A stretch of DNA of 55,665 nt, counting the filler, from Candidatus Hydrogenedentota bacterium (lineage in GTDB: Bacteria > JBFMHD01): the NCBI GenBank assembly GCA_040752395.1. It is 3 parts of 3 records of this genome, joined end to end, with 100 filler letters (N's around TTAATTAATTAA, not from the genome) between each part and the next. Parts side by side here need not be neighbours in the genome. Positions count along the whole stretch, not along the records: positions 12,530 to 43,139 come from JBFMHD010000007.1; 2 more parts are not named here. One strand, 5' to 3'. This document shows, one piece after another, positions 7,903 to 43,239 of this stretch. The first letter of the stretch is position 1. Each line of letters opens with the position of its first letter. The position numbers were made by a program, and so were the translations under genes. The notes under the pieces are model-generated. The model did not search any database and was not told the origin of the DNA. It worked only from the letters and a program-made list of their open reading frames with translations.

Positions 7903-8994
7903 TCATACCATTTTTATGGATTTCAATATCTCTTTCTCCCATTCAAACCTGAGTCTGCCTCTGCAGCCGGGTTTAAATCTATCCACCACATAGGCATACA
8001 ATAATGGTAACGCGACGCTCGGTTCAACCCATGCAAAACAGGAATGCGCTTCTTTAGCTATCTTGCCCCATGATTTTGCTTCACTTAGAGTAGAACCCGA
8101 TAGCCCACCATCATTAACTATGGCGGTAGATATCTGTATTGCATACGAATGTCCGCGTTTTATACCAAAAATGTATCCCATAACCACTGAATCATTGATA
8201 TAATTTTTTGGTACCCCTCCTGCCACGTAGACCGCAGCGGTTTTATGAGATTTTACTATAATTTGTGTGAGTTCATAATTATCCTGAATTGAATCTATTG
8301 ACACACCTTGAACGTTATTAAACTTACAGATATGTCTCTGTTCAGTAAGCCCTATGCCGATAGACGAATCGTTCAATGCCGGTACAAATATAGGTACTCT
8401 GAGTCTTGAAGCTTGATATACAATAGATTCCTGGTCATCTATTTTTGTACCGAGAAACTCCATAAACTCTCTGCTCGAATAATTTCCCGGTTCGAGTTCA
8501 AACGCTTTATCACTAATCCAGCAATCGAGCTTCCAGAATAACTCTTCATCAACATAAGTATCGTAAATCCTGTCTATCCTCAAATCTCTCAAGACACTGT
8601 CATCTGCATCCGGAGTACCTTTATAATGTTTGTATCCCAGAGCCTGATAGATATCCTGATACATTATTGCGCCTGTTGAAACCACTACATCCACGTATCC
8701 ATTCACCACCATATCTCTTATCACTTTTCTAAGACCCGCGGCTATAAGTGGTCCTGCAAGCCCCATAATAATAAGCGGTCTTTCTTTATCCTCAATCATT
8801 CTGCCGAATATTTGTGCGCACTGCCCGAGATTTCTTGCCTGAATAGACATCCCTACCATACTCTCCACAAGTGTAGCAGCTTTCATCCCTTTTTTCACAT
8901 AAACAGATTTTATTTTCTGAGAGAATAGCTGTTTCTTCAACTTTCTTTTTTTAGAAGTTAATCGCTCATACTTTAACATTTCATGTTTTTTCAT
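7903..8994 (-). CDS. Deoxyhypusine synthase-like protein (probable homospermidine-pathway synthase)
   Basis: [26 protein letters not shown] and [17 protein letters not shown] motifs. Confidence 0.9.
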
Positions 8995-12429: not shown

Positions 12430-12529
12430 NNNNNNNNNNNNNNNNNNNNNNNNNNNNNNNNNNNNNNNNNNNNTTAATTAATTAANNNNNNNNNNNNNNN
12501 NNNNNNNNNNNNNNNNNNNNNNNNNNNNN
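12430..12529. other. Artificial contig linker
   Basis: N runs around TTAATTAATTAA, which gives stops in all six frames. Confidence 0.98.
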
Positions 12530-25468: not shown

Positions 25469-25524
25469 ATCTTTTAATTTTTGTGCCTTAGGAACAGTTT
25501 TTTCAAAAATCTGTGAAAATCTAC

Positions 25525-25553
25525 TTGACAAAACTAAAACGATTTAGTAAAAT
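25525..25553 (+). promoter_or_regulatory. lacI-family gene promoter with operator ACTAAAACGATTTAGT
   Basis: TTGACA-17-TAAAAT; the one-mismatch palindrome at 25533-25548 lies in the spacer. Confidence 0.85.
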
Positions 25554-25665
25554 ATAAATATAACTACATTATAAATTAAAAAATTGAAAGATTATTTCGG
25601 CATTCTGATTGCCTCTTGCTTCTACTTGATATTATTATAGTTACAATGTTTTTCAGAGGAGAGCT

Positions 25666-26685
25666 ATGAACATAAACCCCAGAAAATTAAGTATTGAAGA
25701 TATAGCTAAAAAAGCCAGGGTCTCGGTGACTACCGTCTCTTTTGTATTAAATAATAACCCATCAATAAGCGAAAAAACAAGAAAAAAGGTACTCAAAATT
25801 ATTAAGGACGTGGGCTATTACCCTAATATTAATGCCCGAAGCCTATCCTCACAAAAAACTAATACCATAGCAGTCGTTGTTCCTGAGTTGACTCACATCT
25901 TTGAAGACCCATATTTCTCACGAGCTGTAAGCGGTGTCTATGATACGGTTGAAAAAGCATCTTATAGACTCTTGCTAAAAAAAGCATCTCTTGAGTTCGC
26001 AGTAAATAAAGAATACCTGAAACTCTTCTTTAGAAAAGAGATCGACGGTATAATATATGTGGGCTCCACTCTGCGAGACTTCTATCTTGGCGATTTTAAT
26101 AAATACCCATTCCCTTTTGTTCAGATTAATAGTTTCTCTTATAATGAAAATATACCATACGTAATGGTTGATAATCATAAAATCGGTTATCTCGCTACAG
26201 AATACCTCATTAAATCAGGTTGTAAAAATATTACGCATATAGCTGGTTCAATGGATACCACCTCTGGTATCGAACGTCTTGACGGTTTCTTAGAAGCAAT
26301 GAAAAGATATAATATCTCTCTTAATAATCATTCAATCATTGATGGCGGTTTTACACAAGCTGATGGTTATAATGGCGTGAAACGGATCTTCAATAATAAT
26401 TATAAAGTTGATGGTATCTTTGCTACAAATGATCTCGTAGCTATCGGCTGTCTTGGTGCACTCAGAGAACTAAATATAAAAGTTCCTGATAATGTCTCGG
26501 TTATCGGTGCTGATAATATCGAACAATCTGCTATCACTAACCCGCCTCTCTCAACCGTGGATATGCCCACTTATGAGATGGCAAAAAGAGCAACTGAATT
26601 ATTACTTGAAGCCATAGAAAACAAAACTAAAGTAAAGAGTAAGGTATTTGAGCCAGAACTCGTTATCCGTAAAAGTACAAGATAA
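25666..26685 (+). CDS. LacI/GalR-family repressor
   Basis: SIEDIAKKARVSVTTVSFVLN HTH, YYPNINARSL hinge and a sugar-binding domain. Confidence 0.96.
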   Translation: MNINPRKLSIEDIAKKARVSVTTVSFVLNNNPSISEKTRKKVLKIIKDVGYYPNINARSLSSQKTNTIAVVVPELTHIFEDPYFSRAVSGVYDTVEKASYRLLLKKASLEFAVNKEYLKLFFRKEIDGIIYVGSTLRDFYLGDFNKYPFPFVQINSFSYNENIPYVMVDNHKIGYLATEYLIKSGCKNITHIAGSMDTTSGIERLDGFLEAMKRYNISLNNHSIIDGGFTQADGYNGVKRIFNNNYKVDGIFATNDLVAIGCLGALRELNIKVPDNVSVIGADNIEQSAITNPPLSTVDMPTYEMAKRATELLLEAIENKTKVKSKVFEPELVIRKSTR

Positions 26686-26802
26686 TATAAGTTTTTAACT
26701 ATTATAATGTTAAGGGGGAAAAATTCCCTATTAAAGATTTTGCACTAAATACTTGATGTTATGATTTTCTGATGTAGCACACAAAAAATTGCTAAAATCT
26801 AC

Positions 26803-26831
26803 TTGACAAAACTAAAACGTTTTAGTAAAAT
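26803..26831 (+). promoter_or_regulatory. Promoter of the giant glycosidase with perfect LacI operator ACTAAAACGTTTTAGT
   Basis: TTGACA-17-TAAAAT; perfect 16-bp palindrome with central CG at 26811-26826. Confidence 0.88.
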
Positions 26832-26856
26832 ATAGATATAACTACATTATAAATTA

Positions 26857-27004
26857 AAAGATTGAAAGATTATTTCAGCATTCTGAATTTTTTAAAGGAT
26901 GTTGGCTTCAGGCTCCGGGCTTTTGACTCCAGCCGGCTGTAGTCCGTAGCCTGTAGCCTGTCCTGATACCTCTCACTTCTTCCGTTATCTTGCTTCTTGC
27001 TTCT
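26857..27004 (-). repeat. Composite repeat, inverted copy of 24304-24458
   Basis: Same module order, with the AGCCGGCT-centred hairpin. Confidence 0.9.
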
Positions 27005-27088
27005 ACTTGATATTATTAGAGTTACAATGTTTTTCGAAAGAGTTAAATTAAAAATTAGGAGACAGAAGAGAGGTAACTCCTGAACTCC

Positions 27089-30000
27089 TTGAACTCTTTG
27101 TACGCGAGGCTTTTTGTGAGATTATTTAAAATTTTTCTTCCAATGCCTCTATACCTCTTTTGCGCCTTTGTGCCTTTGTATCTCTGTACCCACTTATACG
27201 CTAATAATAGCGTACATACCACATACCTCTGGCATATGGACCAGCCAATTTACTGGCCCGATAGACATTCCTCAGGTAATAGATACGAATATGCATGGGA
27301 CTCGATCCAGGCTAAAGATGGCGGTAGAACTAACCCATTAAATGACGTAAGAGCAATCTTTAGTTTAGATGACCGCGTAGCCGCATACCAATGGCGACCA
27401 AAGGATTCCATAGGCACTGTGCTCTGGCACCCTGATGCCGGAGCACAAATCAATTATTCTGCCTGCCTTATTGAGAACGTCCGCTCTCTCGGTGATGCCT
27501 ATCAACTCGGTTATTCTCCAACATGGTATTCCGGATACCGTGAAGGAAGGAACTGGTCAACCTCAGGTGGGAAACCAAGATTAGATATCGTTCTATTTAC
27601 ATTCCATCATATTTTACCAGGACTTTCTGACCCTATTGTTGTACAACGAGAGATCGAAATATATAAACAAATATATCCTGATGCCTGGGGTACTACACCT
27701 GGTTTATCTAAAGGATATTTCCCTTCTGAGATAGCGTTCTCTGAACGGCTTATCCCTGTTCTTGTTCAGCAAGGCATAGAATGGGTTGTTGTATCTAATT
27801 CACACATATCACGTTGTATCGAAAACTTCCCGCTTGTACTTGGTACTGGCGGCGAAAATACCGAACCACCAAACAGAGCTGATATCATTAACCCAGCACA
27901 AAATAACTGGTTTCGGATGCAGATTGACCGAGGCTGTTCACCCTGCAACGCTTACCCATATTCAATGAGACCACACTATGCAAAATACGTAGACCCAAAT
28001 ACAGGAACTGAATACAAAATCATTGTTGTTCCTACTGAGCAGGCTATGAGCTGGAAAGATGGTTATCAGACTTATGGTACTCAAGATATTGATGGTATAG
28101 CCTGGGCTAATGAGCCTGCAACACCGATGTTAATTGTGTTCTCGCATGATGGCGACAATGCGTATGGCGGCGGCTATTCATATTATATGGAAAGCGTCCC
28201 AAGTTTTGTTTCTCAAGCAAATTCTAAAGGATATTCGCCAACAACTATTCAGCAGTATCTCACAGACCATCCTGTTGACCCAGCTGATATAGTTCATGTA
28301 GAAGATGGTCCCTGGGTAAATGCTGACGGTGATATGGGCTCGCCTACTTACTGCAACTGGAACTGGCCATTAATGAGTCAAACAGGAACAGTTGATATCG
28401 CTAATGGTTGGGCCGAGGATGAACGTAACTGGGCTGTGTTTACCGCTGCTCTTAACCGCATTGTCACGGCTGAACAGGTCTTTGGAGCCCCACCTGACCC
28501 GCGTAAAATTATCTATCCCTGGGAAGGTGCTAATAATTTAGAACTTGCCTGGCATTTCTATTTAGGCGGCACAAACTCAGGGTTTATGTATTATGGTAAA
28601 GCGCTTGATATGGAGGTTAAACCTACTATATCATCGAACGAGGCTGTGTATCATGCTGATTTGATTCTCGGCTCAAATCCAAATGATTTAACACCACCAA
28701 CAATCTGGCTACCTCAGCGTTACCCGTATAATCCAGGCTCACTTAATTTCGGTGCTATCTATAACTATAAACAATACTATGCCCCACGTGATTTCTGGGT
28801 CTGGACTTTTATTTATGATCTCTCAGGCATACAATCTGTAACTCTGAAATATCGGATCGATAACGATGGTGTAAACCCATTATCGTCAAACCAGAACGAG
28901 GTCTATCAAGACGGTACAGAGGTTGGTACCTGGCGCTCACTACCTATGACTCAACGAGTATTCCCAAAAGATAATGTCTATAATGACCCTGAAATAGATT
29001 TCTTTGAATTACCAATCTATATCGCTGATGAATATTATGTTCATGTAGATAGAGCTGAATTAAACAGCGTTTTAATTGATTACTATGTTGAGGCTATTGA
29101 TAGCCGAGGGAACATCACAAGGTCACCAATCCAACATTGTTATATCGGTGACGGTTCTGGTTCTGGCGGTACACCACAAACTCTATGGACACCAACCTAC
29201 CCTACTGAAAACGACTTAATCACAATAACAAAAAATATAGCTACTACTGATACTGTTTATCTTCACTGGGGTGTTAACAGCTGGACTCTGCCTGCAGATT
29301 ACTACTGGCCTTCAGGCTCATTTCAATACGATGCTCAAAGTATTGAATCCCCGATGACTAAAACCGGCTCTGAAACTTACCAGATAACAATAGGTCCTTT
29401 TAATCAGGCTCAAGAAGTTAATCAAGTAAATTTTGTATTCCATTGGGGTTCAACCTGGGATAATAACAACGGCCAGAACTATAATATAACAGTTACTCAA
29501 GTCCCGATTGATACCCAGCCGCCAGATACACCAACAGGTTTAACTATAACAGAAAAAGATCAGACAATAGATTTAAGCTGGAACGCAAACACAGAGCCTG
29601 ATTTAGCTGGGTATTATATATATAGAAAAGCACCAGCAGATACAACATTAGTAAAACTAAATTCGACACCCTGGACTCAAACAACCTACTCAGATACGGG
29701 TCTCACAAATAATTCAGTCTATTATTATCGTATAAGTGCAGTTGATAATTATGATACACCAAATGAATCAGGTTTATGCGACACGGAATCCGGTATCCCG
29801 CGGTCTGTTGATACAGCTCCACCTCTTCCACCAACTGGTCTCTCAACCGCTAAACAGACTCTGGCTATAAAATTGTCCTGGAGTAGAAATCTTGAAACTG
29901 ATTTATCAGGTTATAAGGTCTATAGCTCAACTATTTCAGGTGGACCTTATACCCAGATCGCTGATACGTCTAATACTTACATAACACATACTGATCTTAA

Positions 30001-33000
30001 CCCTGCTGTTAGATATTACTATGTAGTTAAAGCCTATGATAGTTCAAATAATCTTTCAGATACCTCTTCTGAAGTTAGTGACACACCGTTGCCGGACCCG
30101 GCGCCATCAGCACCTACAGGTCTTACACCAACCCCATCATCAGAAAAAGTTACTTTAACATGGAACCCTAACTCTGAGCCTGATGTAGCCGGTTACAGAG
30201 TCTACTATTCAACACTTAGTTTCCCTTTAATTTTACAATATGATACCACACAAACAACAGTTGTTATTTACAATTTAGTAAATGATTCCACGTATCAGTT
30301 TGTTGTTTCTTGTTATGATACCTATGGTTCTGAAAGCACTAAATCAGGAACAGTTACAGCTACACCTAAAGATTATATAACTGTTCACTTCAGTCTGGAT
30401 TTAACAAGTATAACTACTGAAAACACGGTTACAATAGCTGGTAATAGATTGACGCCTGCGTGGTCACCTACTTCTAACCAGCTATCAGTTGTTGAGACAG
30501 GCTCATATTATAAGATAGATTTCCAGTTTTTATCAGGTGATACTTTAGAGTATAAGTATGTGATTAATGGTAATCAGTGGGAGAATGATTTTTCAGGAGG
30601 GTGGTCTATTAACAGAGATATAACTATTGTTGAGCATGAGCCTGGTATAATGTGGGTACATAACAAATGGAACATAGACGGTGATTTGTCTCCTGGCTCG
30701 CCAACAGGTCTGACCCCAACCGATCTCCCAAATTCTATCAAGCTCGAATGGTTAGAAAACAGCGAGTTTGACCGCCGGGGATATATTGTTTTAGTTGATA
30801 CTGATGGTAGTTTTGATTCGCTATCTATAGTCTCAGATAATTACATTACAATTTCAAATATGAATCCAGGCGATACAGCTTTATTTAAAGTTGTATGTGT
30901 TGACAGCGCGTTTAATGTGAGTGGCTATAGCTCGACTATTACAGGCACTGCAGGTGGTAATGCGCCACCATCAAGCCCAACTGGTTTGAACGTTCTCGGT
31001 GTCACGGATACCGCTGTTATTCTTGACTGGGCTGATAATACTGAAGCTGACTTATCTGGCTATTTTATCTATAAATCAACTACAAGCGGTTCAAATTATA
31101 CGAGGGTCAATACAGATACGCATAACCAATCATATTATACAGTCTCTAATCTTACAACGAATGAAACCTATTATTTTGTAGTCTTAGCAGTTGATTCTAC
31201 CGGATTATGGAGCGATACTTCTTCTGAGGTTCAAGGAACACCAAGACCACCAGATACCACACCTCCTTCTGCACCTGCAAACCTGAGAGGCACAGTCGGT
31301 GATAAATACGTTATACTTTACTGGACTAAATCGCCTGAGCAGGATGTTACAGGATACAACGTCTATAGAAAGAGACTTACAGAACAGAATTTTGTCCGCA
31401 TAAATACTTCTGTTGTTACAGATACAACTTACACCTCTTCCGGACTTACTAATAATGAGACATATCAGTTCTATGTTACAGCTCTTGATAATGCATATCC
31501 TAATAATGAATCAGATTCTTCAAACACAGTTTCATTAATGCCTTATGCACCCCCAACCTTTAGAACAATCACAATTGATGGTGATTTCCTTGATTGGATT
31601 CATAATGATGTTATTGAGCTTGATGGCTATAACGATGATTATAAATTATATGATAATTATGACCAGAGTAGAGATATAATAGCGATCTATGCAGCAGAGG
31701 GTCAGGACAATTATTATTTCAGGATCGATTTTTATGAACTCGGTATCTTTGCTGAAAGCACCTATATGGATGCTGTGTTTCTTCTTGATTTCGCAAGCGG
31801 TGGTCAATCCTCACTGCCTAATGTCACTGTTACAACTGATAAACCCTGGGAGATAGCCATTGTCTTTGATGACGTGAATACCTATAAAGTTTACACACCT
31901 GACTGGGTTGACCATCCAACTGATTTTCTTGGAGCACAAATAAGAAGCAATATCGATTGTTTAGAACTCGGCATAAAGAAATCCTTGATGAAAACCTATG
32001 GGTTTACAGATTTCCAGACTATAAATATTCAATGCTATACTTATAAAGATGCTGCTACCCAGATAACAGATGCTGTGGCTGATGACAATCCCTGGGCTGA
32101 TGGTATTTTAAACAGTGCGACTTTATCAACTGCACAAACAGGTACTGCAAAATATTCTGCTATCTTACACGCTAATCAATCCCTGAATCAAGGCAGTGAC
32201 ATCGCAGACTGGATTTATGACGATGTGAACTTAACGCCGAATGGTAACCCCACAGGTTATCGCCGTGCGTTACAAACAGCTTCGTTATATAAACAATCAG
32301 CTAATTTTCATATCAGCGGCTCACTTGCTGTTACTCTCGCCCATGCTAATAATTCAAATTCTTTAAAAGATGGCCCGACTTTTATAAATGATGTTAAAGA
32401 GTTTGTTGATACGGACCAGAGTTATAAACCTGGCCGATTAATCACTGGCGGCGTTTTTGCTGAACATATTATCCCGTTCTTTGAGAATAACTCAGGTCTC
32501 GGTATCTATGTTAATGCAAAAGCTACTTATTATAAAGATAGAATATTAAAATCAATATTTGACATAGGCTACCAGCCGCGGGTTTACTGGACCCCTGAAC
32601 GTGTTATCCGCGGTACAAGTTTTGATGACATTATTACTGATTCCGATGGTAGCCCTACTAATTATATCGCAACTGTTATTGACCAGGTGACACATCTCAG
32701 AGACTGGTATGGTATAACAGACCCGTATAAAGTTTATAAAATAAATGGTGTTATCTGTTTTGCGATCGATGATTATTCTGACCAGAAGAAGTTCTGGAAT
32801 ATGGATGATGGTTTGCATATCGGTGTAAGAGAGCTATTACTCAACAAAGCTATGGCTGCTGACCAGGAGCAGCTCGTGCTTGTGTTTGACGACTGGGAAG
32901 CGTATGCCGGTAAATCGTTTGCATCGCAAGAGACTAATGATAACCCGGATAACTGGGACAAGACAGTTCGCTGGCTCGCTACACACCCATGGATCCAACT

Positions 33001-36000
33001 CATTACGCTTGAAGATATACTTGACTGGGGTTGGAGCTACATCGATTTAGGCACCAATCTCGGTTTAGGGTTTGATACTTACGAATATCTTAAACATGCA
33101 ACCGAGAACTCTTATGAAAACTGGTATTATGGTGGATTCTATGAAGATGATTTTGCTGATGCAGTACCAGTTCTTCGTGGTACAAGATACTCAGGTCCTA
33201 CAACAATCCCATCTGCAAAAAAATACGGCGACGTTTATACAAGCAATACTATCTTCTATGAGACCTGGAATAATATTAAAAATGCAGCCCCGAATAAATT
33301 AAAAACTTTAGCTGAGCTCGGATTCATCGCTACTATATTTGAGACCGCATGGCACGATGAAGATAACGTGGATTATTCCAGAAACCCTGACGGCTCCTGG
33401 GTTTACCCTGATGTTACATGGGATCAAATCAGTCAATGGGCTTTAAAGCTTCATGGCAAAGTAAGAATGAATAACATTATCGCAGAGGCTGCAAACTGGG
33501 CTAATAATGTCAAAACAGGTGTCATCGATGCTACTGCTTGCGCATCTGCAACCGACGTTGATCTTGATGGCGAAAATGAATACATACTTTATAACAATCG
33601 CGTATATGCTGTATTTGAAAACGATGGTGGAAGATTAGAATTTGCGTTTGCTTATAATTCGAATGATGGCGGTTATGGTATGGTTGGTGTTGGTGGCTCG
33701 AACTCTGACTACGAAGGCGAAGAAGAAGGCTCAAGTAATTACAGAAGATGTTCTGCGTTCAAAGATATGAATAACGGCATCTATGTCGATGATGTTTACT
33801 CTGTTTCTGTCAGCACAAAATCACTCACTTTTACGTCTTCTGATGGAAAGATCATCAAAACTTTTTCGCTCGCTGACGGTGATAAAACTATCAATGCTTC
33901 TTATACTGAAACTCTTACTGGCCCTCTGTACATCAGGTTCGGACTATCTCCAAATCAAGTTGATATGTATTACAATGGCACAGATAATATCGCTAAATCA
34001 GGTGGTGCTACTTCTGGCTATGTTGCTGTGACTAATTCTGCTGGCGGCACGGCACGCATAAATTTTGGTAGCACAAGTCTAAACACGGGTTTTAGTGATG
34101 GCTCTCCTGATAACTCAAACCCCTGTATGACTTATCAATACGAGATTTATGGTGATGGCTCTTTTACTTTGAGCTTGACTCTTGATGGTGGCGAAGATGC
34201 TGCTACACCACCACCTGAACCACCAACTAATCTTTCTGCTACACCTGACTCAGGCTCTATTCTACTAACCTGGACAACCTCTGTCGGACCAAATCTCTCA
34301 GGCTACTTCATATATAAAAGCACAGATGGCTCAACATATTACAAAAGATATTCTGACACTATCCCCGGGTCATTAACCCAATGGGCTGATACAGGACTTA
34401 CTAATGGTAACACATACTGGTATTATCTCACAGCTGTAAATACTTCAGGGACCGAAGGATTAGCATCGAGTATTGTCTCAGGTACACCGACTGCTAATGG
34501 ACCCCCTACCCCAACATCGGGCCTCTCTGCAACACCCGGAAACCAAACCGTGCTCCTTAAATGGAATAAAAATACTGAATCAGATTTAGCAGGTTATAAT
34601 GTCTATCGTGGTCTTGTTTCTGGTGGACCTTATACAAAGATTAATGGCTCTCTTAATTCTGATACTGATTATCTTGATACCACTGTGAGTAATGGCGTGA
34701 CTTATTATTATGTAGTAACTGCTGTTGATACAGCAGATAATCAATCTGCATACTCGTCCGAGACAAGTGCAACACCAAATGTTTTAGCTTCACAAGATAA
34801 CGATGTCTGGTGGAGCCATCTCAAGCATGACCCTGAAGATTCTGTGCCGATAAATAATAAAAACTATCGCTCGCCATACCAGCCCTGGCAATATGAAACA
34901 CCGAGTATCTATGTTCGTTCTGCTTCTGGTGATTTAACAGGTGTCTCATTACGTGTCTGGGACGTATTTCAGTCTAAAGTCATCTCTCCCTGGCCTACTG
35001 GCACTTTTATCGGCTCATCTGGTGAATATGATTACTATGAATGTCAGATACCTGCGTTAAGCGGTCAAAAATGGTACAGAATAGCTGTGATTGATGGCAC
35101 TGATACTGACTGGATTAAGTCTGACGGCGCAGGTAACTATGTCGTTTCAGATGGTGGTGAAGATAATGACCCGGCAGGCGCTATTGATTTTACTTATACA
35201 CCAACACCAACAGCTTCACAAGATAACGATGTCTGGTGGGATTTCCTCGGCCATAACCCTGATACAATCGTTGAATCAGAAACATATTATTACCGTGAAC
35301 CAATAAACCCAACACAAAATGATACTATTACAATTTATATAAGAGCTGCTTCTTCTGATTTAACAGGGATCAGTTTGCGAGTCCTTGATTTTGGTGACTC
35401 CTCTGTTAACTGGTACTCTGCTCAGGTTTATGATACTATCGGCAATTATCAAGTTTGGGTTGTTAATATACCACCTGATAGCGATACGCGTGAATATCGT
35501 ATAGCTGTTGTTGATGGGACTGATACTGACTGGTTAGGACTTAGTGCTGGCTGGGTTACACAGGAATGCAAACAATACACCGCATGGGCTGTAAATGGGA
35601 CCGATGCTGATGCTGATTCAGGTGCAGAATGGTCGTTTAAACCATTATCGTCTGCATCACAGGATAATAAAATCGAGACCGATTACCTCTATTTTGACCC
35701 TGATAGCATCGCTTATTCCGGAACAACTTACCAATCACCGCTTAATCCCTCTTTATATGATACTATATTTTTTACAATAAGAACAAGACGAGATGATCTC
35801 AGTTATGTAGTTATAAAATTATTTATATCTGATACAACTACTGAAACAACACCGATTACTGCTTCTAAAATATTTAGTACAGATATCTATGATTTTTATC
35901 AGGCAATACTCAATCCACAAACTGATACTATCTACTACCGCATTATAGTTGTTGATGGCTCTGATACAAAGTATCTAAAAGATAATGCTACTGGTAGTTT

Positions 36001-39000
36001 TGCTATCTCTTCAACAGGTAATGATAACGATCCTGAAGGCGCACTCGATTTCATTATAAGACCATTGCTTGATACCACACCACCAGCTATACCACAAAAT
36101 TTAGGTGTAAGTAACCCGGGCTCGGGTTATTCACTTGATATCAACTGGACACCTGATACTGATGCTGATCTATCATACTATAAAATATATCGTTCCACAC
36201 TCCCAACAGCTACATACTCATTTATAAAATCCTGCACCACGAATTTTTATACTGATACACCTCTACTGCCAGGCATTACATACTACTATCGTGTCAGCGC
36301 AGTGGATCTTAAAGGTAATGAATCAGAACAATCTGACTCTGCCTCTAATACACCAAATGATACCTTGCCACCTGCTTGTGTCAGACTCGCTTCACCACAA
36401 AATGGCGCTTCTACAAATGATACAACACCGCTTCTTGTCTGGACAACCACCTATGACTACGGCTCATGTATAAAATATTATAGAATACAGCTTGATAATG
36501 ATACCTATTTCTTATCAATAATAATTAATGATACAACCACAGCCTCGGATACTGATTATCAAATAACTACTGGACTGGGTGAAGGTAGCTATTACTGGCG
36601 TGTCTTTGCTGTGGATTTGTTTGATAATACCTCTTCCATTATTGATACATTTAATTTTATAATCGATACAACCGCGCCCGGGCCCGTGACTTTAATTAAG
36701 CCCAAATATTACACAAATGATACACCAACTTTATTCACTTTATCAGGCGATGTTAATAGGTATCATATACTGATCAGCCTTAGATTTGATTTTTTAACAA
36801 CCGTATATGATACAATAATAACAGGCACAAGCGTATATCTTTCGCTTGCAGAAAATTTATACTACTTCAAATCTGCAGGGGTTGATTCTACTGATTTAGA
36901 AGGCAGTTTCAGCCAGCCTGAAACCTTTATACTCGATATAACAAAACCGCAAATAACCTCGATCTCAATCAATACCGATACTTATCTTTATAAATCAAGC
37001 GATACCATCTATTTTAATAACTCCTCGAACCTTTATTGCACCTTAACAATATCGTTTGTTGAAGACTATCCTGATTCTGCTGTTTCTTCCTCTTCTTATG
37101 GGAATACACCGGTTGATTCAATGCCTGACAATGGTTTTGATTTATTATACTATATCTCTCAGGCAGAAACAGCAAGCTCGACTGTATCAATTAAAGTCTA
37201 TGACAAATCAAGTAATTCTGATTCTAAAATTATTTTCTTTGTTCGCGATATAACGCCACCAGCTTTCTCTATATCCCCTGTCTCAGATACTGATAATAAT
37301 AATGACAATTATCAGCCATCATATCTATGGGAAGATGATACAATTATTATTATCAGTATTTCAGCATCAGATACTATCTCTGGCCTGGCTCAAAACTATA
37401 TAAGAGCAAGTTTAAAGCCCGGCGATACCACGGATTGGACATCCTCTAATCAACTGGTTCTTGCCTCATCGTATGCTGATACACAGATACTTATAACAGT
37501 TTATACAAAAGATGCTGTGTCAAATTCTTCAGCTAATACTATCACTATAAATATCGATAGAACGTTACCTGTTATAAGTTCCTGCACCTTTCTTGATCCT
37601 GGTTATGAAACCTCTTATTATAATCCAATCGATTCTCCAATAGTATATCTTTATGTTACTTATACAGATACATATCCTGATACTATAATCTTAGATATTA
37701 CTGGCATCACCGATCCTCAGGCTGATTCATTGCCGGTTAATGCAAGCACTTTTGCGATTAATGTCTCAGCATCACCAAGTGCTGATACTTATAATATCAC
37801 AATCTATGCGATCGACTATGCGGGCAACGTCGGTCTTTATACGCCTCCTGCTTTAAAACTTGATCGGACATCACCTGTTGTCGGTACCTTAAAAATCAAT
37901 AACGGCACGTTAAATGTAGCTGATACCACGTTTAAATTAACCGCTGTTAGCTGGTCTGATGCACATTCCTGCATAAAAGAATATTATGCATCTTGTACCA
38001 CACCTAACCCGTATTTACTTAACCCTGATTCTGATGGCATCTGGCCTGAATTTGTTATCCCCGATGTTAGTGGTACGCATACCATCTATGTTATGTGTAT
38101 AGATAATTTAAGAAACACAAGCTCTATTGTCTCTATAACTATCAATTATGATTCAAAAACACCGGTTATAGAACAAATTAACGTTACCTCAGATAAAGAT
38201 ACCTATTTATTTTCTAATAATCCGCTTTTAAGCGAGGAAGATACTGTCTGGTTCTCTAATCTACCCTCGTTTGGCGCTAATCAGACCATTACAATAAATG
38301 TCACTTTCCGTGCTAATAATCCTGATACTATGACTGCTGATACCGCATTTAATAAAGGACTACAAATAGATACCACCATAGCTGATTCTTATACCGCAAC
38401 CTATACCATAGACCAATCTGTTACATCAAACACCCGAGTCATTATTACTGTTTATGAAGCAACTGGTGAAAAGGATAGCGGGATTATAAATTTTGCTCGC
38501 GATATCGATACCCCAGGTATGATAAAAAATGATACCTACTACGGACCTTATAACTCTGCGCCTGCATCTATAATTGATCTGGATTTCTATGACACTGGTG
38601 TCGGCCTTGAATATTTTGGCTATGGCGTCGGCTCACCTGCTATTCTACAAAAGTATTATATCTCTGGTAACTCTTATACAACCAACTGGCAGATTAACTG
38701 GAATGATATCTCTGAAGGTACAAACGTTATTTATGTTACTCTATCTGATAGCGTTGGTAATATTTCATCAGGCTATGATACTTTTATTATCATTAAAGAC
38801 ACTACAAAACCTGATTCACCTCTTATTACAAAACCAGCTGATAACTCATGTGATTCTTCTGTAAATATACTCTTTACATGGACATCTGTTAGTGAAGCAA
38901 ATACCTATACTCTAATTGTTGATAATAACTCTACTTTACTATCACCTGAATATACAAAAATTACAACAGACACTAATAAAACCTTAAGTTTATCCGAGGG

Positions 39001-41347
39001 TATCTGGTATGCTGGTGTTGCTGCTACTGACCTTGCAGGTAATATCAGTGATACTTCAAGTATTATAACTTTTTGTAGGGATGCAACCGTTCCTTCGTTT
39101 GTAAGCAAATATCCTGATAATAATTACGTCCTATCTGATTCCTCGGTTTATATAACAATCTCCTGTACAGACTCATTATCTCTACCTGATTCTTTCTACT
39201 TTACCTTGCTTATTGACACAGGCGCAGGTTACACTGATGTCGGTTCCCAGATGACGAAATACGATACCGGGTTTAGATATAGACCTGCTAAAGGATACTT
39301 TGATTCAGGAACTATTATTTATGTAGGATATATTTACGATCGTGCTCATAATGTTAATGTTTGTACCGTCTCATTTCGGATTGATACAGCATCTGTCCCG
39401 ATCTCTATTATCTCACCTGTTGATACTTATATAAAATATGTTTATTTAGATGTCACTATTTTTTCAGAGATCAGCGATACTATATATCTGTTTTTAGATA
39501 ACAATCTATACTCATATAAATTATTAACTACTCAAACATATACTTTTTATGCGGTCCCTCTAATCACTCAGGGCTGGCATACGTTAAAAGCCTGTGCTGT
39601 AAATAATTTAGGCGTATGGTCTGATACAATCACAAAATTGGTCTATCTTGACACCACTCCACCCCCTGCGCCGGTTCTTATAAGTGTTACACCTGATACC
39701 TGGACAGGAATCGACTCATTCACTATAAAATGGATAGCTGTTAATGACTCCTCTGGTATTTTATATTATTACTATATCCTAGACAATCTGCTTCTTGATA
39801 CTTCAGGTGGTATAAAAACAACTGATACCCAGATACAGATACAAATCGGGTTTTCGCAAGGTATCCATAAACTTTATCTCTATTCTCAGGACAAAGCAGG
39901 GAATATCGATACTTCACAATATACCATTGTCACTCTTTACCTTAATTCAAATGCTCCATCACTTTATATCACTTCACCTGTAAATAATGGTTATATCCAG
40001 AATTTAACTGTCACAGGAACTATAACAGACCCTGAAGATACGCCTGTAATTGTATATGTCCTGGTTGATGGGGCTGATACCACGCAGGCATCTGTAAGCT
40101 CACAGGGCACCTGGGCTGTAACAGTAATAATAACCTCTGCTGGCTGGCATACTATCAAAGCTTATGCAGTAGATAATTCGAATAATACCGCTTCTTATGA
40201 AGTAGTAGCTTTTTACGATACCTCTACTCCATCAATCGCAATTACACCTTTCGCAGTTATTGATACTAAAACATCAGTAGTTGTAACAGGCTCCTTGATT
40301 GATTCTGATATTATAGCAATAACATTAAAACAGAACAATGATACCACCTATAATGCTTCGGTTAATACTCAAGCAAAAACTTTTAGTGCAACTCTTACTC
40401 TTACAGATGGTGAAAACATATTCTATATTGACAGCTCAGACAGCAGTGGTAACCATTCCTATGATACAATCTATATATACAAAGTAGATAATGCATTGAC
40501 TTATGATACTGTAAAAGGATATTCGATTATCCCATCGTTCACACAATTCGATACATATTCTGCAGGCGTTAATATCCAAGGAACCACTACTATTGAGGTT
40601 CAAATCCCGATTTATGATTTTACTATGGGTCAATATCTGGACACTTACATAATAAAATGTTGTTTTGCTGATACTACCACAGCCTTCCTCACTCACAGAG
40701 CTGATACTACAAGCTTATTATCTGCATTAAATACTGATGATTATAGATTATTATCATTTACTCTTTATGAATTTAAGGTGCTTAATCGAGAAGGGGCAGA
40801 CATAGGTAACGATTCTTCAAAACTACTCTCTGCAACACTTATCTATAAAACATCTCGTTCACAGATCGCTGGTAAAGATGTAACGACTCTTAAAGTATTT
40901 TATTACAACCCTTTAACAGCGACTTTTGAATCTGTTAGCTCGTCGTACAGTTCTCTTGAAGGCGGTATAGTTACTTCTTTATCGCATCTTTCAATATTTG
41001 GTATTTTTCCGGGTGCAACCGCGGCACAGCCGTCGTTATCAAATCTAATAATTTATCCAAACCCGTTTAAACCTAATGACGGCGATGCTAATACGGGTCG
41101 ATGGTATGTTGCTGGCGATTTTACGACTGGTATCATATTCGATAGATTAACTGATGATGTAACGATAAAAATATTTACGATTACAGGTCAAAAAGTAATC
41201 GAACGCAGAATTACAAATACAGGCATCGCCCATTGGGACGTCCGTAACGACCAGGGCGATATCGTTGCATCAGGTGTTTATATAGCAGTTGTCGAAGATA
41301 ACAAAGGTCGTGGCAGAGTTATTAAGAAGATTGCAATAATAAAGTAG
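27089..41347 (+). CDS. Giant secreted multidomain alpha-glucan-active enzyme (two GH57/GH119-like domains, CBMs, FN3/Ig arrays, T9SS-like CTD)
   Basis: Domain 1 has WHMDQP, FPSEIAF and SHDGDN. Domain 2 has LHANQ, WTPERV and VFDDWE. Also WDNNNGQNY (CBM25-like), LEYKYVING (CBM20-like), three SQDNDVWW-type modules (CBM34-like), many FN3 repeats and a YPNPF...WD...ASGVY...KKIAIIK C-terminus. Start codon uncertain. Confidence 0.85.
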   Translation: MNSLYARLFVRLFKIFLPMPLYLFCAFVPLYLCTHLYANNSVHTTYLWHMDQPIYWPDRHSSGNRYEYAWDSIQAKDGGRTNPLNDVRAIFSLDDRVAAYQWRPKDSIGTVLWHPDAGAQINYSACLIENVRSLGDAYQLGYSPTWYSGYREGRNWSTSGGKPRLDIVLFTFHHILPGLSDPIVVQREIEIYKQIYPDAWGTTPGLSKGYFPSEIAFSERLIPVLVQQGIEWVVVSNSHISRCIENFPLVLGTGGENTEPPNRADIINPAQNNWFRMQIDRGCSPCNAYPYSMRPHYAKYVDPNTGTEYKIIVVPTEQAMSWKDGYQTYGTQDIDGIAWANEPATPMLIVFSHDGDNAYGGGYSYYMESVPSFVSQANSKGYSPTTIQQYLTDHPVDPADIVHVEDGPWVNADGDMGSPTYCNWNWPLMSQTGTVDIANGWAEDERNWAVFTAALNRIVTAEQVFGAPPDPRKIIYPWEGANNLELAWHFYLGGTNSGFMYYGKALDMEVKPTISSNEAVYHADLILGSNPNDLTPPTIWLPQRYPYNPGSLNFGAIYNYKQYYAPRDFWVWTFIYDLSGIQSVTLKYRIDNDGVNPLSSNQNEVYQDGTEVGTWRSLPMTQRVFPKDNVYNDPEIDFFELPIYIADEYYVHVDRAELNSVLIDYYVEAIDSRGNITRSPIQHCYIGDGSGSGGTPQTLWTPTYPTENDLITITKNIATTDTVYLHWGVNSWTLPADYYWPSGSFQYDAQSIESPMTKTGSETYQITIGPFNQAQEVNQVNFVFHWGSTWDNNNGQNYNITVTQVPIDTQPPDTPTGLTITEKDQTIDLSWNANTEPDLAGYYIYRKAPADTTLVKLNSTPWTQTTYSDTGLTNNSVYYYRISAVDNYDTPNESGLCDTESGIPRSVDTAPPLPPTGLSTAKQTLAIKLSWSRNLETDLSGYKVYSSTISGGPYTQIADTSNTYITHTDLNPAVRYYYVVKAYDSSNNLSDTSSEVSDTPLPDPAPSAPTGLTPTPSSEKVTLTWNPNSEPDVAGYRVYYSTLSFPLILQYDTTQTTVVIYNLVNDSTYQFVVSCYDTYGSESTKSGTVTATPKDYITVHFSLDLTSITTENTVTIAGNRLTPAWSPTSNQLSVVETGSYYKIDFQFLSGDTLEYKYVINGNQWENDFSGGWSINRDITIVEHEPGIMWVHNKWNIDGDLSPGSPTGLTPTDLPNSIKLEWLENSEFDRRGYIVLVDTDGSFDSLSIVSDNYITISNMNPGDTALFKVVCVDSAFNVSGYSSTITGTAGGNAPPSSPTGLNVLGVTDTAVILDWADNTEADLSGYFIYKSTTSGSNYTRVNTDTHNQSYYTVSNLTTNETYYFVVLAVDSTGLWSDTSSEVQGTPRPPDTTPPSAPANLRGTVGDKYVILYWTKSPEQDVTGYNVYRKRLTEQNFVRINTSVVTDTTYTSSGLTNNETYQFYVTALDNAYPNNESDSSNTVSLMPYAPPTFRTITIDGDFLDWIHNDVIELDGYNDDYKLYDNYDQSRDIIAIYAAEGQDNYYFRIDFYELGIFAESTYMDAVFLLDFASGGQSSLPNVTVTTDKPWEIAIVFDDVNTYKVYTPDWVDHPTDFLGAQIRSNIDCLELGIKKSLMKTYGFTDFQTINIQCYTYKDAATQITDAVADDNPWADGILNSATLSTAQTGTAKYSAILHANQSLNQGSDIADWIYDDVNLTPNGNPTGYRRALQTASLYKQSANFHISGSLAVTLAHANNSNSLKDGPTFINDVKEFVDTDQSYKPGRLITGGVFAEHIIPFFENNSGLGIYVNAKATYYKDRILKSIFDIGYQPRVYWTPERVIRGTSFDDIITDSDGSPTNYIATVIDQVTHLRDWYGITDPYKVYKINGVICFAIDDYSDQKKFWNMDDGLHIGVRELLLNKAMAADQEQLVLVFDDWEAYAGKSFASQETNDNPDNWDKTVRWLATHPWIQLITLEDILDWGWSYIDLGTNLGLGFDTYEYLKHATENSYENWYYGGFYEDDFADAVPVLRGTRYSGPTTIPSAKKYGDVYTSNTIFYETWNNIKNAAPNKLKTLAELGFIATIFETAWHDEDNVDYSRNPDGSWVYPDVTWDQISQWALKLHGKVRMNNIIAEAANWANNVKTGVIDATACASATDVDLDGENEYILYNNRVYAVFENDGGRLEFAFAYNSNDGGYGMVGVGGSNSDYEGEEEGSSNYRRCSAFKDMNNGIYVDDVYSVSVSTKSLTFTSSDGKIIKTFSLADGDKTINASYTETLTGPLYIRFGLSPNQVDMYYNGTDNIAKSGGATSGYVAVTNSAGGTARINFGSTSLNTGFSDGSPDNSNPCMTYQYEIYGDGSFTLSLTLDGGEDAATPPPEPPTNLSATPDSGSILLTWTTSVGPNLSGYFIYKSTDGSTYYKRYSDTIPGSLTQWADTGLTNGNTYWYYLTAVNTSGTEGLASSIVSGTPTANGPPTPTSGLSATPGNQTVLLKWNKNTESDLAGYNVYRGLVSGGPYTKINGSLNSDTDYLDTTVSNGVTYYYVVTAVDTADNQSAYSSETSATPNVLASQDNDVWWSHLKHDPEDSVPINNKNYRSPYQPWQYETPSIYVRSASGDLTGVSLRVWDVFQSKVISPWPTGTFIGSSGEYDYYECQIPALSGQKWYRIAVIDGTDTDWIKSDGAGNYVVSDGGEDNDPAGAIDFTYTPTPTASQDNDVWWDFLGHNPDTIVESETYYYREPINPTQNDTITIYIRAASSDLTGISLRVLDFGDSSVNWYSAQVYDTIGNYQVWVVNIPPDSDTREYRIAVVDGTDTDWLGLSAGWVTQECKQYTAWAVNGTDADADSGAEWSFKPLSSASQDNKIETDYLYFDPDSIAYSGTTYQSPLNPSLYDTIFFTIRTRRDDLSYVVIKLFISDTTTETTPITASKIFSTDIYDFYQAILNPQTDTIYYRIIVVDGSDTKYLKDNATGSFAISSTGNDNDPEGALDFIIRPLLDTTPPAIPQNLGVSNPGSGYSLDINWTPDTDADLSYYKIYRSTLPTATYSFIKSCTTNFYTDTPLLPGITYYYRVSAVDLKGNESEQSDSASNTPNDTLPPACVRLASPQNGASTNDTTPLLVWTTTYDYGSCIKYYRIQLDNDTYFLSIIINDTTTASDTDYQITTGLGEGSYYWRVFAVDLFDNTSSIIDTFNFIIDTTAPGPVTLIKPKYYTNDTPTLFTLSGDVNRYHILISLRFDFLTTVYDTIITGTSVYLSLAENLYYFKSAGVDSTDLEGSFSQPETFILDITKPQITSISINTDTYLYKSSDTIYFNNSSNLYCTLTISFVEDYPDSAVSSSSYGNTPVDSMPDNGFDLLYYISQAETASSTVSIKVYDKSSNSDSKIIFFVRDITPPAFSISPVSDTDNNNDNYQPSYLWEDDTIIIISISASDTISGLAQNYIRASLKPGDTTDWTSSNQLVLASSYADTQILITVYTKDAVSNSSANTITINIDRTLPVISSCTFLDPGYETSYYNPIDSPIVYLYVTYTDTYPDTIILDITGITDPQADSLPVNASTFAINVSASPSADTYNITIYAIDYAGNVGLYTPPALKLDRTSPVVGTLKINNGTLNVADTTFKLTAVSWSDAHSCIKEYYASCTTPNPYLLNPDSDGIWPEFVIPDVSGTHTIYVMCIDNLRNTSSIVSITINYDSKTPVIEQINVTSDKDTYLFSNNPLLSEEDTVWFSNLPSFGANQTITINVTFRANNPDTMTADTAFNKGLQIDTTIADSYTATYTIDQSVTSNTRVIITVYEATGEKDSGIINFARDIDTPGMIKNDTYYGPYNSAPASIIDLDFYDTGVGLEYFGYGVGSPAILQKYYISGNSYTTNWQINWNDISEGTNVIYVTLSDSVGNISSGYDTFIIIKDTTKPDSPLITKPADNSCDSSVNILFTWTSVSEANTYTLIVDNNSTLLSPEYTKITTDTNKTLSLSEGIWYAGVAATDLAGNISDTSSIITFCRDATVPSFVSKYPDNNYVLSDSSVYITISCTDSLSLPDSFYFTLLIDTGAGYTDVGSQMTKYDTGFRYRPAKGYFDSGTIIYVGYIYDRAHNVNVCTVSFRIDTASVPISIISPVDTYIKYVYLDVTIFSEISDTIYLFLDNNLYSYKLLTTQTYTFYAVPLITQGWHTLKACAVNNLGVWSDTITKLVYLDTTPPPAPVLISVTPDTWTGIDSFTIKWIAVNDSSGILYYYYILDNLLLDTSGGIKTTDTQIQIQIGFSQGIHKLYLYSQDKAGNIDTSQYTIVTLYLNSNAPSLYITSPVNNGYIQNLTVTGTITDPEDTPVIVYVLVDGADTTQASVSSQGTWAVTVIITSAGWHTIKAYAVDNSNNTASYEVVAFYDTSTPSIAITPFAVIDTKTSVVVTGSLIDSDIIAITLKQNNDTTYNASVNTQAKTFSATLTLTDGENIFYIDSSDSSGNHSYDTIYIYKVDNALTYDTVKGYSIIPSFTQFDTYSAGVNIQGTTTIEVQIPIYDFTMGQYLDTYIIKCCFADTTTAFLTHRADTTSLLSALNTDDYRLLSFTLYEFKVLNREGADIGNDSSKLLSATLIYKTSRSQIAGKDVTTLKVFYYNPLTATFESVSSSYSSLEGGIVTSLSHLSIFGIFPGATAAQPSLSNLIIYPNPFKPNDGDANTGRWYVAGDFTTGIIFDRLTDDVTIKIFTITGQKVIERRITNTGIAHWDVRNDQGDIVASGVYIAVVEDNKGRGRVIKKIAIIK

Positions 41348-41410
41348 GCTACAGACTACAGGCTCCAGACTCCAGCCGGCTGTAGCCCGTAGCCTGAAGC
41401 CTCAAGCCCG
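41346..41410. repeat. Heptamer-arm hairpin directly after the stop of the giant gene
   Basis: (AGGCTAC-like)x4-AGCCGGCT-(GTAGCCT-like)x4. Confidence 0.8.
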
Positions 41411-41511
41411 AAGAGCCTGAAGTCCGAAGTTCCCCAAAGACTGAGGGAATTTTGAAACAAATTATCTTGAGCTTATTCGAAGTTTACAAAAACTTATAAA
41501 CAGGTTATTTA

Positions 41512-42903
41512 ATGAAAATTAATTTATCAATTCCCAATTTTTTGTTCTTCCGTTTCCTTTCCTGCCGTAGCCTGAAGCCCGTAGCCTGTAGCCTGTTCTT
41601 ATCTTTCTCTCTCCACGCTGCGAACAGCATCGGCCAAACCTGTGCCGAGTTCCTTAAAATCGAGGTCGGAGCTAAACCCGCTGCTATGGCCGGGGCTTAT
41701 ACCGCTTCAGGTAATGATGCCTGGGCACCTTTCTATAACCCAGCACACCTCGGCTTCTTAACAAACTATGAGATTGGGTTCCAGCATAATAACTGGTTCC
41801 AGAATATTAATCAAAACTATTTTGTAGCAATATTACCTACAAAACGCTTCGGAACATTTGGTGGTAGTTTTAATTATGTTGATTTAGGAGATTTAGAACG
41901 AACAACCATAGCCTCAGGTCAGGCAGGCCAGATACTCGGCACATTTGATGCCTCGGATATGGCTCTCTCTTTATCCTGGGGTATGAAATTTGAGAAACCG
42001 ATAAGTGTGGGCACTACTTTGAAGTGGATCCATTCAAAGATAGAATCCGAAAAAGCAGATGCAGTTGCATTTGATGTAGGTCTGAGATACAGACCATATA
42101 AAATCTGGGATCTCGGACTGACTGTCCAGAACATTGGTTCTGATATGAAATTTATCTCAGAGGGTGACCCACTGCCATGGTCTTTCCGACTTGGTAACTC
42201 TTTAAGATTTTTTGATGATAGCCTAAGTTTAAGTCTTGATATGATCAAATATCGAGCCACAGACCCTGATGTATCAGTCGGACTTGAATATGATTTACTA
42301 AAAGTAGTGGGGTTCCGCGTTGGTTATAACTCACGAAATAGCGATGTGGACCAGGGTTTAACCTGTGGTATAGGTTTTCATTATGCTGGCTTTAGTGTGG
42401 ATTACAGTTATGTTCCGTATGGTTTTCTTGGCAACAGTCACCGGCTTAGTGTGGGGTTCAGGTGGGGTGTGACTCCAAAACCACAACCTCTAACCACTAA
42501 ACCCCATCCCCCAACCGCCAAACCAAAACCTCCTACACAAAAACGCTATGACACAATAACACAAAAACCAGAAATGGTTCCACTCGAAGTATTCTACGTT
42601 CCGCGTTTTAATGGTATTAATCTACCGCAAAATGCGGTCTGGCTCGAGAGATCTGCCCAGGATTTATTAAAATCAAGATTAGGGAACAAAGGAATAAAAC
42701 TTTCAGAGACTCGCTACTCTCACTACATCCAATGCACAATCGAGTTTACTGACATCTCAACTCTGCTTATCATTGCCAAACTTTATGACAAATATGACAA
42801 TCTCATCTACACAACCAGCACCCGGGGCCCATCCTCAAAACTCATCCACCTCATCGATACTTTAAGTCTCTCTATCTTTAATCACCTAACCCAACCTCAA
42901 TAA
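41512..42903 (+). CDS. PorV/PorQ-family (UPF0164-like) outer-membrane beta-barrel with C-terminal extension
   Basis: AEFLKIEVGAKPAAMAGAY, FYNPA and DYSYVPYGFLGNSHRLSVG motifs, then a Pro/Lys linker and an extra domain. Confidence 0.88.
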   Translation: MKINLSIPNFLFFRFLSCRSLKPVACSLFLSFSLHAANSIGQTCAEFLKIEVGAKPAAMAGAYTASGNDAWAPFYNPAHLGFLTNYEIGFQHNNWFQNINQNYFVAILPTKRFGTFGGSFNYVDLGDLERTTIASGQAGQILGTFDASDMALSLSWGMKFEKPISVGTTLKWIHSKIESEKADAVAFDVGLRYRPYKIWDLGLTVQNIGSDMKFISEGDPLPWSFRLGNSLRFFDDSLSLSLDMIKYRATDPDVSVGLEYDLLKVVGFRVGYNSRNSDVDQGLTCGIGFHYAGFSVDYSYVPYGFLGNSHRLSVGFRWGVTPKPQPLTTKPHPPTAKPKPPTQKRYDTITQKPEMVPLEVFYVPRFNGINLPQNAVWLERSAQDLLKSRLGNKGIKLSETRYSHYIQCTIEFTDISTLLIIAKLYDKYDNLIYTTSTRGPSSKLIHLIDTLSLSIFNHLTQPQ

Positions 42904-43139: not shown

Positions 43140-43239
43140 NNNNNNNNNNNNNNNNNNNNNNNNNNNNNNNNNNNNNNNNNNNNTTAATTAATTAANNNNN
43201 NNNNNNNNNNNNNNNNNNNNNNNNNNNNNNNNNNNNNNN
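43140..43239. other. Artificial contig linker
   Basis: N runs around TTAATTAATTAA. Confidence 0.98.

Follow-up and report, generated by a model that had tools for sequence, protein, structure and literature searches.

A giant, putatively alpha-glucan-degrading enzyme with a type 9 secretion-type tail, encoded beside a PorV-family barrel in a Candidatus Hydrogenedentota genome

How might a bacterium outside Bacteroidota export, hold and release an enzyme of several thousand residues? The question is raised by a locus in a 55,665-nucleotide stretch of DNA (hereafter the window) from Candidatus Hydrogenedentota bacterium, GenBank assembly GCA_040752395.1. Three genes lie in order here, all on a single host contig (C317): a lacI-family gene, a gene for a giant secreted protein ending in a C-terminal domain (CTD) like those known from type 9 secretion systems (T9SS), and a gene for a PorV/PorQ-family outer-membrane barrel (Table 1). 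According to a 2023 review, CTD proteins occur in Bacteroidota alone (PMC10202324); structural work reports that cargo must be drawn off the SprA pore by a motor (PMC10994853). A pore, barrels and giant cargo in the absence of a known motor or sortase would test what a minimal T9SS is and how the T9SS began. The reading preferred here, at a probability of roughly 0.55, is that the LacI-linked giant, which appears to carry two GH57-like modules besides its type 9 tail, would leave through a SprA-like pore, stay anchored to the barrel by its uncut tail and be shed by self-cleavage at a His-Leu/Ser site just before that tail.

The host genome comprises 2.84 Mb in 349 contigs with a completeness of 93.8%. 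A search across its Genome Taxonomy Database (GTDB) phylum returned only the genome itself. By RpoB, the closest full-length relatives share 57% identity. Candidatus Lindowbacteria is the label of the best row that has a name, and Bacteroidota appears in no named row of the 120 relatives listed. An outer membrane is indicated by BamA, Skp, LpxD and TamB. The host is a diderm, and it lies outside Bacteroidota, as a first-pass annotation of the window, made by a model from the sequence, had supposed.

The same annotation had recognized a FlgD-Ig/T9SS type A-like tail and a PorV/PorQ-family barrel directly following it, and both assignments held. The last 150 residues of the giant score 27.3 bits against TIGR04183 (cut-off 23) and match the PorZ model at 1e-16. 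When the tail was searched as a profile, PorZ (4e-12) and PorU (1.6e-8) ranked above FlgD and above ordinary CTDs. According to parts of a review, the CTDs of PorZ and PorU stay uncut, bound to PorQ and PorV, respectively (PMC10202324). The last strand of the tail contains a conserved lysine, probably equivalent to Lys1110 of RemZ. Identity of the tail as FlgD, the flagellar hook cap, was rejected, as PorZ and PorU outrank FlgD and the proteins that bear such tails are secreted and not flagellar. The barrel reaches 208.8 bits against the PorV/PorQ family model NF033709 (cut-off 90) and is also matched by PF19572; its profile matches a PorV structure with an expectation value (E) of 2.9e-31 versus 3.5e-6 for the best FadL match, and a FadL/OMPP1 transporter was rejected on these values. 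Most barrels of the host carry C-terminal extensions, and that of the window barrel gives a CsgG-like lead (score 0.86). No terminator or strong promoter was found on the plus strand between the giant and barrel genes, and the content of this gap is weakly compatible with their co-transcription.

The arrangement of a cargo gene followed by a dedicated barrel gene, also proposed in the first-pass annotation, proved to be one of many. The host genome has 23 PorV-family matches, 18 of them above cut-off. A tail profile built from 13 motif-picked tails retrieved 19 tail proteins, and inspection by eye contributed one more, whose tail is degenerate. Of the tail proteins, 15 are encoded just upstream of a barrel gene, one of them with a small gene between. 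Across these 15 pairs the similarities of tails and barrels co-vary (Mantel rho 0.62, p ~0.001), also after removal of row effects (rho 0.40, p ~0.0004). The pairs were therefore copied or drifted together, which is not proof of specificity. Fifteen natural tail-barrel pairs in one genome nevertheless form a ready set for asking how carrier barrels choose their cargo. Elsewhere in the genome, a 134-residue protein consisting of a signal peptide and a CTD alone precedes a barrel (C196:1463-1864) and may be a plug or decoy cargo. Large secreted proteins at C284:12550-24528, C112:17295-24335 and C302:3411-8693 end in an Asp-rich repeat, presumably dockerin-like, instead of a CTD. For some of them, the gene stands directly upstream of those for a CTD protein and a barrel; proteins of this kind may ride out with or dock on CTD-bearing partners.

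Overlooked in the first reading of the giant was a domain directly before the CTD. In the predicted structure (predicted local distance difference test, pLDDT, 81) it forms a beta-sandwich whose last two strands are joined by a turn holding a His-Leu-Ser motif. The domain occupies the same position in the giants of three orthologous loci in other genomes, and the HX(S/T) motif is kept in all four giants. Among 141 related proteins (150 representatives listed, less nine from the host genome) the motif column reads HX(S/T) in 129 and another motif in five, and is not covered in seven; this count is biased upward, because the search profile itself holds the motif. A longer form of the pattern occurred in 24 of 2280 random windows. 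At the level of genome loci, with two of 30 dropped by a filter, HX(S/T) stands before the tail in 18 of 22 loci outside the Fibrobacteres-Chlorobi-Bacteroidetes (FCB) group and in none of six comparison loci. Its presence goes with genomes that lack a C25 peptidase, the family of the PorU sortase, which was found in 0 of 8 non-FCB and in 7 of 7 comparison genomes.

In MAIN (microbial GAIN) domains, as described in a preprint, an HX(S/T) motif sits on the turn that leads into the final strand of a self-cleaving domain placed between enzymes and anchor (bioRxiv 10.64898/2026.05.12.724683), and related ZU5 domains in bacterial surface glycohydrolases had been proposed earlier as autopeptidases, in passages of PMC3482391. 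By motif, position and model, the pre-tail domain is thus a candidate GAIN/MAIN-like self-cleaving domain. If it does cleave itself, shedding by GAIN/MAIN domains would extend from cell-wall anchors to outer-membrane barrels. Several results weigh against this part of the reading: no ZU5, GPS or GAIN Pfam domain was found among 80 members, sequence searches of Pfam and the Protein Data Bank (PDB) gave the pre-tail domain no name, a profile search found no GAIN structure in the PDB, an atlas gives only a ZU5 lead (score 0.86), and six of the 11 host cargo proteins that carry the domain have lost the motif, degenerate paralogues reading EFS or QNS. A further point against the preferred reading is that the window barrel is 35-38% identical to the barrels of the orthologous loci and up to 37% identical to its own paralogues, and so is no closer to the former.

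These last two observations would also suit an alternative that keeps the same export route and makes the barrel a transient or non-specific shuttle only, the pre-tail domain an uncut spacer, and has the enzyme freed or held in some other way. Barrel identity that does not follow orthology fits such a shuttle, as do at least two tail proteins (on C312 and C328) with no adjoining barrel and the several barrels with no adjoining cargo. The alternative is less easily squared with the conservation of the motif in relatives and orthologous giants, with a tail of the retained PorZ/PorU type, with the co-variation of barrels and tails, or with the lack of any sortase found to take over the cargo, and it is considered unlikely.

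Export through a shared pore, as the preferred reading has it, calls for a SprA homologue. The search for one that the first-pass annotation had suggested led to a SprA-like gene of at least 1917 codons on contig C85, open at the contig end. A profile of its product and six non-FCB relatives (n=7) matches Flavobacterium johnsoniae SprA at 1.6e-26. Among 28 genomes chosen from 80 loci that encode relatives of D2, the second catalytic module of the giant, SprA matches were found in 14 of the 15 whose PorV families are expanded and in none of the other 13. The sprA-like gene is not linked to any cargo-barrel pair. In four genomes (loci L135, L136, L141 and L142) SprA-like genes were seen by eye to adjoin lptF/lptG-like genes.

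The remaining T9SS parts, for which a search had likewise been suggested, were not detected in the host. For the PorL/PorM motor, no GldL was found in a model search run without a positive control. The best GldM match has an E of 0.17, and the GldM family PF12081 is absent in 16 of 16 genomes, again without a positive control. No GldK or GldN, the PorK/PorN ring, was found at E 1 and 0.1, with no positive control above cut-off. No motor was seen beside sprA in the neighbourhoods read. For the C25 peptidase the search is better anchored, being negative in the host and in eight of eight other non-FCB genomes (two of them drafts of only 1.3-1.4 Mb) and positive with the same model in seven of the 15 non-host genomes, namely all seven comparison genomes (two labelled Fibrobacter/Fibrobacteraceae, four Eisenbacteria and one unlabelled). 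As far as the sequences go, the set of proteins resembles PorZ-PorQ and PorU-PorV, yet it does not qualify as a canonical T9SS, for which ring, motor and sortase were not detected, the last of these being present in many, not all, such systems.

Here too there are points on the other side. The SprA-like protein matches TIGR04189 with an E of 1.4e-26, yet below cut-off, and on its own gave no match in a single-sequence PDB search. The absence calls rest on draft genomes, the host's being 93.8% complete, and the motor searches lacked positive controls. In Flavobacterium, according to parts of PMC10994853, cargo jams in SprA when the motor is missing; a motor-less system therefore needs an energy source, and none was found here. 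The sub-threshold SprA score, the incomplete assembly in 349 contigs, the lack of motor controls and the energy needed for extraction lend some weight to the view that the T9SS of the host is complete and of the ordinary kind, with a ring, motor and sortase that escape detection through divergence or lie in unassembled DNA, and that the locus then encodes ordinary cargo. The absence of GldM across all the genomes searched, and of the C25 peptidase in nine non-FCB genomes while the same search succeeded in seven others, speaks against it. So does a precedent: SprA, PorV and Plug are noted in the available text of PMC11705866 to occur without other T9SS parts in Melioribacter and Ignavibacterium. 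A hidden complete system therefore seems distinctly unlikely.

Under the preferred reading, export would begin when LacI, bound to a palindrome inside both promoters of the locus, is relieved, likely by a malto-oligosaccharide. The giant, which has a signal peptide, would then cross the inner membrane by Sec and fold in the periplasm, as known T9SS biology suggests. By analogy with SprA-PorV-CTD structures, its tail would bind to loops of the barrel expressed with it while that barrel is docked at SprA. Since no PorU-type sortase was detected, the tail would stay on, and the barrel would hold it for good, much as PorU is anchored by PorV and PorZ by PorQ. From its motif and position, the MAIN-like domain would cut itself, and the halves would remain clasped until a pull on bound starch or glycogen frees the enzyme. 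Degradation products would enter through genes elsewhere in the genome. The C-terminal extensions of the barrels could, at a guess, be handles. The weakest step is the energy for leaving SprA, for which the best guess would be a motor of the ExbBD-TonB type, several of which are encoded in the genome. The host has five ExbB/MotA-family genes, and its ExbBD-TonB clusters lie away from sprA. One of the five lies at C135:8534-19424, where a TPR gene, exbB, exbD and a tonB-like gene stand directly upstream of bamA, skp and lpxD, a candidate outer-membrane energiser.

A broader proposal, put forward tentatively and rated at something short of an even chance, is that a widespread branch of type 9 secretion without sortase or GldKLMN exists in deep-branching diderm phyla. 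Each large cargo would dock permanently on its own PorV-type barrel, GAIN-like self-cleavage would replace PorU with force-triggered shedding at the outer membrane, and the window locus would be its starch-foraging module. In the literature searched, which mostly excluded subscription papers, no T9SS-type tails joined to MAIN or GAIN domains were found, nor were PorV expansions described for these phyla. The main text of the MAIN preprint contains no mention of T9SS, type IX or FlgD (10.64898/2026.05.12.724683); its tables of 15,000 proteins may list such cases. Relative to that literature, the predicted combination of a T9SS-type tail, an HX(S/T) pre-tail domain and a barrel appears to be new.

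What the giant does is suggested by its two catalytic modules. The protein had been flagged as a giant secreted enzyme; it is indeed one open frame, and its signal peptide is its sole hydrophobic stretch. Neither module passes the Pfam GH57 model itself. Of 8000 candidates scored, 1147 are relatives of the first module, D1, and PF03065 (GH57) is found on 119 of the 120 listed. Residues E214 and D354 are kept in 121 of 121 aligned rows. The D1 profile matches the GH57 structure 7e1y (E 1.2e-5) with E214 aligned to the glutamate of the WTPE motif; the catalytic assignment of D354 is by motif only. The motifs of D1 probably resemble those of the related family GH119. For D2, 114 relatives were found, PF03065 being present on part of them; the conserved motifs are HANQ, PE1837R and D1935WE, with E1837 in 105 of 108 rows and D1935 in 90 of 108, and the predicted model has a pLDDT of 94. 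D2 is accordingly inferred to be GH57-like, and it counts against this that its own sequence and profile give no Pfam or useful PDB match and that its similarity to D1 is not significant by BLAST or by profile comparison. A recent duplication of one module from the other was ruled out on the latter result. Of 80 genome loci, 12 carry D1 and D2 fused together. In the literature searched, nothing describing either group was found; D1 and D2 represent two widespread, apparently uncharacterized GH57-like groups.

GH57 catalysis uses a glutamate nucleophile and an aspartate donor, and the family covers several specificities, alpha-galactosidase among them, according to parts of PMC6037648. This breadth, the lack of a close characterized relative of D1 or D2 in the searches made, and the orphan status of D2 in Pfam and the PDB would all accommodate an enzyme that acts on a glycan other than an alpha-glucan, or one in which a module is a transferase or inactive. 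That possibility is remote enough to be called highly unlikely. The giant is instead likely an alpha-glucan-degrading surface enzyme, because it contains starch-binding-type modules, which are also present on D1 relatives, and because the orthologous giants join GH13 and starch-binding (CBM20) domains to the same modules.

Those orthologues lie in genomes G001, G002 and G003, the last labelled Candidatus Lindowbacteria, where the order lacI, giant, barrel recurs. Their giant frames span 8930, 9660 and about 8280 residues, respectively, begin with a GH13 domain and are collinear with the window giant over residues 42-2563 at 38-39% identity. In G002, frames ending in the same tail reach 11,547 codons, and several exceed 8000. 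The host has other alpha-glucan genes as well. A second giant gene with GH13, of about 3180 codons, spans C340:1-3066(-) and C347:2-6655(+), contigs that overlap by 181 bases; its product is secreted and lacks a CTD. Proteins with CBM48 occur at two further host barrel loci, and at C123:3131-4876 a PorV-family barrel itself carries a CBM48-type glycogen-binding module in its C-terminal extension, behind a CBM48-bearing CTD cargo. SusD (PF07980) was not found in the host genome in a search whose control was positive, and the Pfam scan of the locus revealed no transporter or uptake gene, in agreement with the earlier remark that no SusC or SusD genes are nearby.

With a SprA-like pore on another contig, 15 cargo-barrel pairs, further alpha-glucan genes and no uptake gene at the locus, the earlier description of the unit as self-contained and possibly minimal finds no support. 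Its strictest form, a two-gene system in which export or display of the enzyme would fall to the barrel with no shared pore, is hardly credible: the strict cargo-then-barrel order of the pairs and the unlinked position of sprA would suit it, yet 14 of 15 genomes with barrel expansions also have SprA-like genes, and PorV is, in passages of PMC10994853, a carrier at the side opening of SprA and not a pore.

Control by LacI, which the first-pass annotation had read from a repressor gene and operator upstream of the giant, is supported by palindromes within both promoters. The exact palindrome ACTAAAACGTTTTAGT would be expected by chance 0.004 times in the host genome, and 0.13 times with one mismatch; similar palindromes were found upstream of all three lacI orthologues. 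The promoters have the TTGACA boxes described earlier, with 17-bp spacers; the second box reads TAAAAT and not TATAAT. The lacI promoter and leader (25515-25660) are copied almost base for base before the giant gene (26795-27035), where the leader copy is split by a dispersed repeat of the host. This duplication is not shown by the three orthologous loci. An operator copy with one mismatch (0.13 expected) lies at C292:11981, with a phosphoglucomutase-family gene on one side and a pilB-like gene on the other; LacI may there control a cluster for a type IV pilus or for type II secretion. Taken by itself, the three-mismatch operator upstream of the other giant GH13 gene carries no significance (some 19 sites of this kind expected, four found).

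Outside the locus, the window contains a bacterial gene of the deoxyhypusine synthase family (PF01916) at 7903-8994. Positions 12430-12529 and 43140-43239 are gaps where three contigs were joined, and the glycosylation genes past 43240 are therefore not shown to be neighbours of the barrel gene.

Table 1 Features of the lacI-giant-barrel locus, in window coordinates (aa, amino acids; Ig, immunoglobulin).
Feature	Position	Strand	Basis or remark
Sigma-70-type lacI promoter, TTGACA-17-TAAAAT	25525..25553	+	Near-identical to giant-gene promoter
Predicted LacI operator in promoter spacer, one mismatch to palindrome	25533..25548	.	Palindrome search
LacI-family repressor, 339 aa	25666..26685	+	PF00356, PF13377 (sugar-binding); orthologues adjoin giant gene in G001-G003
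Sigma-70-type giant-gene promoter, TTGACA-17-TAAAAT, duplicate of lacI promoter	26803..26831	+	Sequence comparison
Predicted LacI operator in promoter spacer, perfect 16-bp palindrome ACTAAAACGTTTTAGT	26811..26826	.	Sole exact copy genome-wide
Dispersed intergenic repeat, genome-wide, inserted in giant-gene leader	26899..27035	.	Many 90-98% copies on other contigs; not in lacI leader
Giant multi-domain secreted enzyme of 4752 aa; start TTG (alternative ATG at residue 19)	27089..41347	+	Single open frame
Predicted Sec signal peptide, aa 1-38	27089..27202	+	Sole hydrophobic stretch, residues 8-34
Catalytic module D1, GH57-like, aa 39-690; predicted nucleophile E214, acid/base D354	27203..29158	+	Relatives, conservation, profile
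Starch-binding-type Ig module	29219..29491	+	PF23166
Fibronectin type III array	29522..31558	+	PF00041
Catalytic module D2, divergent, inferred GH57-like, aa 1500-2380; candidate E1837, D1935	31586..34228	+	Relatives, conservation, model
Alpha-amylase N-terminal Ig-like module	35768..35989	+	PF02903
Thr/Ser/Asp-rich Ig-like stalk, approximate boundaries	36056..40408	+	Repeats common to other host cargo; PF09136
Candidate MAIN/GAIN-like self-cleaving beta-sandwich, aa 4478-4641	40520..41011	+	Motif, position, model
His-Leu-Ser motif, aa 4633-4635, predicted cleavage site, turn before last strand of domain	40985..40993	+	Alignment, model
Type A-like T9SS CTD, long PorZ/PorU type	41024..41344	+	TIGR04183 above cut-off; PorZ, PorU profile matches rank first
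PorV/PorQ-family outer-membrane barrel (aa 42-317), Pro-rich linker, C-terminal alpha/beta domain (aa 319-463); 463 aa	41512..42903	+	Family models

Set against known systems, the locus comes close to two pairs from the attachment complex of Porphyromonas gingivalis, PorU-PorV and PorZ-PorQ (PDB 6za2, 5m11 and 6h3i chain F). It shares with them a PorV/PorQ-family barrel and a long CTD of type A that is most like the CTDs of PorZ and PorU. It differs in that the host, which lies outside Bacteroidota, spreads this arrangement over 15 gene pairs, has as cargo a likely glycosidase of 4752 residues, yields no PorU or C25 peptidase, and has mostly barrels with long C-terminal extensions. The SprA/Sov-PorV translocon of Bacteroidota (PDB 6h3i and 8gl6-8gln) has counterparts in the SprA homologue, the PorV homologues and the CTD with its conserved last-strand lysine, whereas the host SprA-like protein, of about 1900 residues, falls below the family cut-off and ring, motor and sortase were not found; the host is closer to the state with SprA, PorV and Plug only, as noted for Melioribacter and Ignavibacterium (PMC11705866), than to a full T9SS. 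In F. johnsoniae, type B CTD cargo genes are linked to genes for cognate PorP/SprF shuttles, according to PMC12618676. That system likewise links a cargo gene to its own barrel gene around a shared SprA pore, but the host barrels belong to the PorV/PorQ family, its tails pass the type A model and no GldKLMN was detected. The GH57 amylopullulanase-type enzyme of PDB 7e1y shares its nucleophile motif with D1, in which the Glu and Asp positions are invariant; unlike it, the giant has two divergent modules in one secreted chain. The Bacteroides starch utilisation locus (Sus) and cell-bound multi-domain amylopullulanases share regulated surface hydrolysis of alpha-glucans with binding modules, whereas the host has no SusD, no transporter at the locus and LacI in place of SusR. 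MAIN proteins such as Bacillus subtilis YfkN (10.64898/2026.05.12.724683) and the ZU5 autopeptidases (PMC3482391), as far as these sources describe them, are alike in being very large and in their order of signal peptide, enzymes and Ig repeats, HX(S/T) beta-sandwich and surface anchor; the likeness is one of motif and position, and the anchor of the giant would be a T9SS-type CTD held by an outer-membrane barrel, in place of a sortase motif or an SLH domain.

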